A stretch of 64,000 bases of DNA from an uncultured delta proteobacterium. GTDB taxonomy: Bacteria; Myxococcota_A; Polyangia; Palsa-1104. This document shows, in pieces, positions 51,496 to 51,560 of this stretch. The position numbers and the translations under genes were made by a program. The number at the start of each line of letters is the position of its first letter. The first letter of the stretch is position 1. Location of the stretch: the NCBI GenBank assembly GCA_963785725.1, contig CAWAWS010000006.1, positions 256,001 through 320,000 of the forward strand, in the 5' to 3' direction. The notes below the pieces were generated by a model. The model made no database searches, was not told the DNA's origin, and was given only the letters and a program-made list of their open reading frames with translations.

Positions 51496-51522
51496 TTTAC
51501 CGCGGCGAAACGGGTACGAAAC
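51496..51522 (+). promoter_or_regulatory. GlnR-box-like array TTTAC-n6-GAAAC-n6-GAAAC upstream of glnB
   Basis: Three 5-mers at exact 11-bp periodicity, ending 38 nt before the glnB start. Confidence 0.6.
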
Positions 51523-51560
51523 GTAAACCCGGCCATAAACGTAGTCCGAGAGAGGCCACC

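Follow-up and report, generated by a model that had tools for sequence, protein, structure and literature searches.

Introduction

Gram-negative bacteria of the delta group are expected to use NtrC together with sigma-54 for nitrogen control. In NtrB/NtrC systems of this kind, found in enteric and many delta-group bacteria, the glnB-glnA operon is regulated from distant enhancer palindromes. Regulators of the PhoB, PhoP and MtrA type bind 11-bp direct repeats with a head-to-tail period, and have canonical phosphorylation pockets, kinases and targets of their own; in streptomycetes, MtrA and PhoP share or overlap the sites of GlnR. In Sorangium, ammonium affects secondary metabolism, and NtcA of Sorangium cellulosum is a Crp-family protein with palindromic sites. 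Rachid et al. 2009, as cited in PMC10128143, describe NtcA as a negative regulator of the chivosazol genes. Reviews present the OmpR-type regulator GlnR as the way in which actinomycetes control nitrogen (PMC10704036). Its GlnR boxes (gTnAc-n6-GaAAc) are a- and b-type pentamers arranged a-b-a-b at an 11-bp period, and GlnR structures 8HIH and 8HML are reported in PMC10235972.

Here we analysed a 64,000-nucleotide stretch of DNA, hereafter the window, from an uncultured member of the class Polyangia (Myxococcota), in which an array of similar pentamers precedes glnB-glnA. The system to which this array appears to belong resembles actinobacterial GlnR control in its pentamers and their period, in a last box predicted to fall immediately past the -35 position, in its candidate targets (glnA, amtB, P-II genes, nirB, and gdh with a single box), and in a regulator with no adjacent kinase, a degenerate receiver and, in the host family, the same Thr/Asp/Arg residues. 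It differs in that the regulator belongs to a Gram-negative phylum and forms a separate, well-supported clade, with Gln in place of Lys153 and, outside the host family, an Asp that is often Glu and an Arg that is lost. In addition, the boxes run (a)-a-b-b, shortened to b-b at Polyangiaceae glnB, the a-site is mostly TTWAC, and the regulator gene is tied to clpX or tldD/pmbA. NtrB/NtrC and sigma-54 control the same operon, whereas Polyangia have direct repeats adjoining the core promoter and no -24/-12 element. The PhoB/PhoP/MtrA-type proteins share the fold and the binding period, but their similarity to the regulator of the window is far weaker. NtcA is likewise an ammonia-responsive regulator from the same bacterial class, but neither that protein nor its motif was found here. 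We found no description of a GlnR regulon in Myxococcota in the full-text literature; subscription papers, regulon databases and supplements may hold a prior prediction. The first-pass annotation of this DNA had put forward a candidate for an undescribed system; what we describe is a variant of the known GlnR system and not a new kind.

Results

A GlnR-box-like array in the pyrD-glnB gap

The glnB gene (51561..51899, plus strand) encodes a P-II protein of 112 amino acids (NCBIfam PRK10858, E 6e-48) and is followed by glnA (51930..53359, plus strand), encoding a type I glutamine synthetase spread over several frames (TIGR00653 in three ORF pieces, along with PF00120 pieces). Upstream of the array lies pyrD (50458..51453, plus strand; PRK07259 above cut-off), whose stop (51453) is separated by 107 bp from the TTG start codon of glnB (51561). 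Both glnA (51930-53359) and clpX (26438-27656) are broken by several frameshifts, with frames intact in relatives; these are probably assembly errors, as expected of an error-prone long-read assembly.

As the first-pass annotation had reported, the gap contains TTTAC-n6-GAAAC-n6-GAAAC with an exact 11-bp period (51496-51522). It consists of an a-type box, TTTAC (51496..51500), and a first and a last b-type box, both GAAAC (51507..51511 and 51518..51522), all on the plus strand; we predict that the last falls immediately past the -35 position. These boxes agree with published GlnR pentamers. A fourth, in-phase pentamer that had been missed, TTTTC (51485..51489, plus strand), makes up the first of four sites and is a weak a-type word. 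It recurs in 5 of the 6 same-family box-bearing glnB promoters (G003, G004, G005, G009 and G012), and its position is occupied by GTTAC in the sixth (G002) and in nine more promoters of Polyangia, including another family. Two later TAAAC words had also been read as array members, which we could not uphold: both are out of the 11-bp register and are not conserved as boxes. The first (51524..51528, plus strand) lies 1 nt past the last box and is absent from relatives. The second is more likely a -10 element (TAAACG, 51536..51541, plus strand) than a box, with TAACAT and TAACAC at the same place in G003 and G004. A ribosome-binding-like GAGAGAGG follows (51548..51555, plus strand).

Across 34 arrays, the pentamer columns are near invariant (T32 T32 W33 A26 C33 in the a-type box) and the spacers vary; the invariance of the first GAAAC box is partly by construction, because the arrays were anchored on it. 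The 27-bp array pattern has a single match in the window, also when 2 mismatches are tolerated, and shuffled windows gave a mean of 0.01 matches. In the host genome (8.9 Mb, 68% G+C, 88% complete), TTTAC-n-GAAAC was found 14 times at n=6 versus 0-4 times at each other n from 0 to 15; the textbook form GTNAC-n-GAAAC gave no n=6 peak (18 at n=6; 9-25 elsewhere). A matrix derived from eight relatives' promoters and four known pentamers placed the window site first of the 43 listed in the 8.9-Mb genome.

The host genome has a sigma-54 gene. In line with the first-pass annotation, no TGGCAC-N5-TTGC site was present within the pyrD-glnB gap at up to 2 mismatches; elsewhere in the window there were 41 matches versus 60.8 expected.

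An orphan OmpR-family protein related to GlnR

The predicted binder of the array is an orphan OmpR-family protein encoded at 27744..28553 on the plus strand (conserved core 27744-28430). Its best PDB matches are 8hig, 8hih and 8hml (E 2e-42 to 7e-36), with the next best at 6e-27, and in a comparison with solved structures it matched GlnR at 1e-52, MtrA at 1e-29 and PhoB at E 2e-23. When compared with the DNA-contact residues listed in PMC10235972, 13 of 14 are identical, the exception being Lys153, which is replaced by Gln. The recognition helix differs from that of GlnR by a single residue (V to I), and no other OmpR-type protein encoded in the genome has this helix (0/13). The GlnR_1st domain PF21695 scored 30.1 bits against a cut-off of 27, compared with 111-148 bits for actinobacterial members, and the receiver alone is weakly GlnR-like (4o1h, E 0.07). 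The predicted structure model has a pLDDT of 87.6.

Canonical receivers have an acidic residue and a Lys that are absent here, leaving a degenerate phosphorylation pocket. Thr7, Asp56 and Arg58 align with Thr9, Asp50 and Arg52 of GlnR, which form a triad in the GlnR receiver according to PMC10704036. The triad and the lost acidic and Lys residues are shared by 9 of 10 members of the host's family (one is a fragment). In other Polyangia families the triad is not kept, with Asp often changed to Glu and Arg mostly lost.

The regulator gene is divergent from clpX (26438..27656, minus strand, frameshifted), a conserved neighbour that lies beside it in 11 relatives' loci as well; in four Polyangiaceae-type loci it follows tldD/pmbA. 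No kinase gene was identified near the regulator, either in the window or among the 28 flanking ORFs scanned in 17 relatives' loci, and none of 9 loci had an autoregulatory box at the regulator gene. Taken together, the helix, the contact set, the orphan context and the degenerate receiver support the assignment of the protein as a GlnR-type OmpR regulator. The first-pass annotation had taken it for the regulator of a putative GlnR regulon, and the PDB matches, the residue comparison and the trees described below show it to be a GlnR relative. It had also paired regulator and operator within one window; the GlnR relative is borne out, but the shared window is incidental, the gene being tied to clpX or tldD/pmbA.

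Co-occurrence of the array and the GlnR relative

Among near relatives, the glnB promoter carries the array in G002, G003, G004, G005, G009 and G021 and an a-b pair in G012; the site is truncated in G010 and partial in G019. No array was found at this promoter in G011 and G017, both of which are without the regulator. In the 30 best P-II loci drawn from 50 regulator-bearing genomes, 27 had GAAAY-n6-GAAAC with an a-type word one turn upstream; the remaining three comprised one truncated locus, one that was not parsed and one without an array. The unpublished genome G389 contributes one row to each of the comparisons of P-II loci, arrays, box-to-TA distances and regulator residues and to the FastTree analysis, and none of our conclusions hinges on it.

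The TA of a -10-like element lies 10-11 nt past the last box in 28 of the 34 arrays, and at 13 nt in the host genus. The glnB-type promoters with the array have a fixed box-to--10 distance (28/34) and no recognisable -35 element. With this spacing the last box falls around -27 to -23 and its predecessor covers -35, and PMC10235972 places the b2 and a2 sites of the GlnR activation complex at corresponding positions. An ATG is found within about 12 nt of the TA in many of these 28 arrays, which suggests leaderless messages.

We then scored 41 glnA loci from 80 hand-picked genomes (61 with a match), using a matrix trained on 32 arrays from which the window site, one mis-anchored row and the G389 row had been left out, and counting scores of at least 18 within 300 bp of the operon start. 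In the regulator-positive genomes, one of which (G283) also figures, as an identical record, among the training genomes, 22/26 reached this score. Two more, G081 and G104, have a perfect array between glnB and glnA, so that 24/26 positives carry it overall; in G159 and G303 the regulator is present and the sites are weak, below 18. By comparison, the array was found in 0/13 genomes without a clear regulator, a group that includes G223, which was counted negative and has a divergent homolog at E 2.6e-42 and no array at glnA. A wrong-spacing control gave 1/26 positives, and as background for the matrix, 29 of 17.8 million positions scored at least 18. In whole genomes, the exact a-b-b pattern occurred in 13/16 positive versus 0/30 negative genomes (6/9 positives without training genomes), with 15/16 exact matches at glnB, P-II, amtB or DUF1989 genes; a reversed a-b-b control gave one match in each of three negative genomes. 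Because the genomes are related, these counts overstate their independence. The conservation in orthologous promoters, whose absence the first-pass annotation had named as a refutation, was found both in the P-II loci (27/30) and in the test genomes (24/26).

Regulator and boxes are both missing in G042, G114, G293, G011 and G017, and the informative contrasts are G114 versus G213 and G253, which belong to one genus, along with G042, G293, G011 and G017. Exceptions include G021, with a full array, and G019, with a partial one, in which the regulator was not found (80% and 88% complete, respectively).

In the arrays seen, the boxes follow the order (a)-a-b-b, which is reduced to b-b at Polyangiaceae glnB. 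Sorangium-type glnB loci have a b-b pair and TA element in 4/4 cases, which the 300-bp window missed because they lie near -310. These loci (L368-L371) have a long conserved G+C-rich leader, about 280 nt upstream, running from the predicted promoter to the start codon. No Rfam match was found in this leader (L370), and an Rfam search on four loci including the glnB promoter found nothing. Contigs from four RNA runs on a Sorangium-type glnB promoter end at 3642, 3688, 3791 and 3837, and the predicted start near 3657 was neither supported nor contradicted.

Candidate sites at other genes

At amtB, 14/32 loci scored 18 or more upstream, compared with 0 of 32 at spacing 10, at spacing 12 and downstream, and 3 of 32 on the reverse strand; one of the two exact arrays in G278 is at amtB. 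In one host amtB copy (L031:1370-1425, G000:C15), a near sigma-54 site, TGGCAC-N5-TTGG, lies just upstream of a TTTAC-n6-TAAAC box, and this copy is possibly under dual control. Sorangium-type nirB scored 25.5 in 3/3 main copies and 1.9 in a second copy. The enrichment at nitrogen genes that had been anticipated is therefore seen at amtB and at the main Sorangium-type nirB copies. One NIR_SIR gene was found in the host genome, which is 88% complete.

A search of two Sorangium-type genomes with the array pattern at one mismatch gave 8 and 7 sites, with 0 in the controls. Sites at nirB, at a DUF1989 gene, which we take to go with urea carboxylase, and at pfk were present in both, and a site at a Peripla_BP_5 binding protein gene, presumably one that goes with UrtA, was present in one. 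The pfk site is a four-site array with GTTAC first, located before phosphofructokinase (L381 and L380; G532 and G533), and is a possible link from nitrogen to carbon control.

Some of the host's sites are narrower in distribution. The 20 top sites fetched from the host genome include one each at a second P-II gene, gdh, gltB and a BBP2 porin gene; besides glnB, only 3 of these 20 best sites are at clear nitrogen genes, and the rest are non-nitrogen or unassigned. The gdh site consists of one a-b box in reverse orientation, with a TTGAC -35 element following after a few bases. It scored 18 or more at 5/30 loci, all in the host family, with two more loci at 17.5 and 14.9, and gdh was therefore rejected as a class-wide target, its boxes being family-level only. 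Streptomyces coelicolor gdhA also has a single box, and is repressed by GlnR. A class-wide role at gltB was rejected as well, since the forward box was found at only 3/30 loci, all in the host genus. At the gltB promoter (L159:2450-2500, G000:C16), a forward a-b box is present 51-54 bp ahead of the gene in three genomes of the host genus; the host promoter is without this stretch and has a reversed box slightly upstream.

Two further arrays in the host genome have no evident nitrogen gene. One of its three exact a-b-b arrays (L146:2475-2501; G000:C15:63614-63640, minus strand) is upstream of, and points away from, an alpha/beta hydrolase gene, and no nitrogen gene was found beside it. A near-copy of the glnB operator, spacers included, lies in a region of 55-66% G+C (L162:2050-2110, G000:C14:411062). 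It immediately precedes a repeat of roughly 170 nt that is scattered across at least six contigs; it is not followed by a nitrogen gene, and Rfam gave no match. GAAAC-n6-GAAAC alone proved too unspecific to serve as a regulon finder in large genomes (63 versus 36 control matches in G268; 16 versus 18 in G278), and no nitrogen gene was found at 7 non-glnB sites of this form whose neighbours were scanned in G283.

Phylogeny and distribution of the regulator

A homolog search with the 27744 protein identified at least 573 candidate stretches encoding a relative, of which 80 were kept; among the matches listed, close homologs came from Polyangia, Myxococcales, Haliangiales and Kofleriaceae bacteria. 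In a search with a strict cut-off, all 19 matches came from one genus, with proteins 86-97% identical to one named Sorangium cellulosum. As a phylum search with PF21695 alone lacked the sensitivity to chart the family (13/301 genomes over cut-off), the distribution of the family was determined with a profile of 29 clade sequences. At E 1e-42 or better, the regulator was found in 47/58 sampled genomes of the class and 8/242 other genomes of the phylum.

Among the 40 nearest relatives, a single query found the regulator in 9/14 genomes of the host family and 0/26 of the order's two other families. In one of these lineages, family f3, P-II matches numbered 0/22, and five same-family genomes without the regulator had no GlnA match. 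G006, G008, G013 and G014, together with family f3, gave no match to the regulator, P-II or glnB-linked-type GlnA with the queries used. This pattern suggests that a nitrogen-sensing module was jointly lost in some lineages of the order.

Trees were rooted on the genome's own OmpR paralogs and built with a quick IQ-TREE run (81 rows) and with FastTree (176 rows, 15 rows with odd ends having been left out). In these trees all GlnR-like proteins form one group (support 100). In the IQ-TREE analysis, a Polyangia clade (SH-aLRT 98) is separate from the actinobacterial GlnR clade (99), with the relations among these and several other GlnR-like groups not settled; FastTree unites the two at 90. The trees do not support a recent transfer from actinomycetes, against which the separate position of the Polyangia clade, outside actinobacterial GlnR, argues.

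In 6/8 cases, a distant homolog in the phylum's other families directly precedes a glutamine synthetase gene (by Pfam for three), and 2/2 of the genomes with such homologs that were scored have a b-b pair at the operon. This second GlnR-like clade is found upstream of a divergent glutamine synthetase gene in L237-L242 (G322, G168, G138, G202, G307 and G222), and b-b boxes at the glnB-glnA operon were seen in G168 and G292. A 536-bp contig of one phylum genome (G071:C47:48-380) encodes a strongly actinobacterial-type GlnR N-terminal domain (136 bits), which is probably contamination.

Discussion

The array is very likely a conserved operator of the glnB-glnA operon, bound by the GlnR relative encoded at 27744 and predicted to activate a sigma-70-type promoter under nitrogen shortage. 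By analogy with the GlnR activation complex (PMC10235972), the three to four pentamers would be bound head-to-tail at their 11-bp period, with the protomers on the last two boxes covering and following the -35 position. Contacts of those protomers with sigma region 4 and the beta flap may make up for the missing -35 element, and the upstream boxes may recruit further protomers. Polymerase with the housekeeping sigma factor would thus be recruited to promoters without a -35 element, and genes for glutamine synthetase, P-II and the uptake or assimilation of ammonium, nitrite and urea would be switched on when nitrogen is short. The regulator would also likely activate amtB and the second P-II gene, as well as nirB and urea-related genes in Sorangium-type genomes; in the host family, where a strong TTGAC -35 comes a few bases after the reversed a-b box, gdh would likely be repressed. 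We would not expect a histidine kinase to switch it.

Four other readings together have a small share of the probability. The best of them, in our estimate an improbable one, is that the boxes are real but are read mainly by another protein inherited along with the GlnR relative, either an OmpR-family protein or Sorangium NtcA. Direct repeats of 11 bp are general to the OmpR/PhoB family according to PMC10235972, the genome encodes 13 other OmpR-type proteins, and boxes without a detected regulator occur in G021 and G019; NtcA, for its part, is described as ammonia-responsive in Sorangium in PMC10128143. However, the GlnR helix and contact set are unique to the 27744 protein among these paralogs, which were compared by helix, the boxes fit published GlnR pentamers and they are gone where the regulator is lost. 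Sites of the NtcA family, moreover, are palindromes, not direct repeats.

We consider it quite unlikely that the GlnR relative, bound at the array, acts as a repressor of glnB-glnA, or that it answers a non-nitrogen signal. Since the last two boxes overlap the -35 region, a protein bound there could also block polymerase, but the lack of a recognisable -35 element and the fixed box-to--10 distance (28/34) match the layout of a GlnR activation complex. Several host sites at non-nitrogen genes and the pfk array in two Sorangium-type genomes would fit a different signal, whereas the recurrent targets are assimilation and scavenging genes.

ECF sigma factors recognise -35 and -10 elements of the form GAAAC...CGT, and GAAAC(51518)-N17-CGTA can be read in the window, so that GAAAC could be the -35 of an ECF-type promoter with no activator. 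This is highly improbable: CGT occurs 15-18 nt past either GAAAC in only 9/34 arrays, versus TA at 10-11 nt in 28/34, and an ECF sigma factor leaves three to four helically phased boxes and the reversed gdh box unexplained. A sigma-54/NtrC-type promoter, or chance words in an AT-richer gap, is barely credible, as the encoded sigma-54 and the one amtB copy with a near -24/-12 site beside an a-b-like box are set against the absence of -24/-12 from the gap and from 26 regulator-positive promoters (sites occur only in genomes without the regulator, 3/13 versus 0/26), and chance against an expectation of 0.01 per window and pentamers that are conserved between variable spacers.

Activation by the GlnR relative is thus the reading we carry forward, and the first-pass proposal of a GlnR regulon outside Actinobacteria is supported at the level of sequence, as a feature that appears class-wide in Polyangia and not peculiar to the host genome. 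More broadly, sigma-54-independent control of the GlnR type is probably the ancestral nitrogen switch of the class Polyangia, Sorangium included (47/58 sampled genomes), with its own ancient clade and an (a)-a-b-b operator, lost with its boxes or with glnB-glnA in some lineages, and with a second, glnA-adjacent clade in other families. Because some families retain the triad and others have altered it, these bacteria offer a natural series for the study of nitrogen sensing by a response regulator without a kinase.

A class-wide GlnR regulon in Polyangia would break the division between actinomycetes with GlnR and delta-group bacteria with NtrC, and it supplies a candidate regulator, motif and target list (glnB-glnA, amtB, nirB, urea genes and gdh) for the cultured and genetically workable Sorangium. 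If true, GlnR would be a cross-phylum system and not a hallmark of Actinobacteria, and its relative described here would supply the global nitrogen regulator so far missing from the chief natural-product producers among the myxobacteria.
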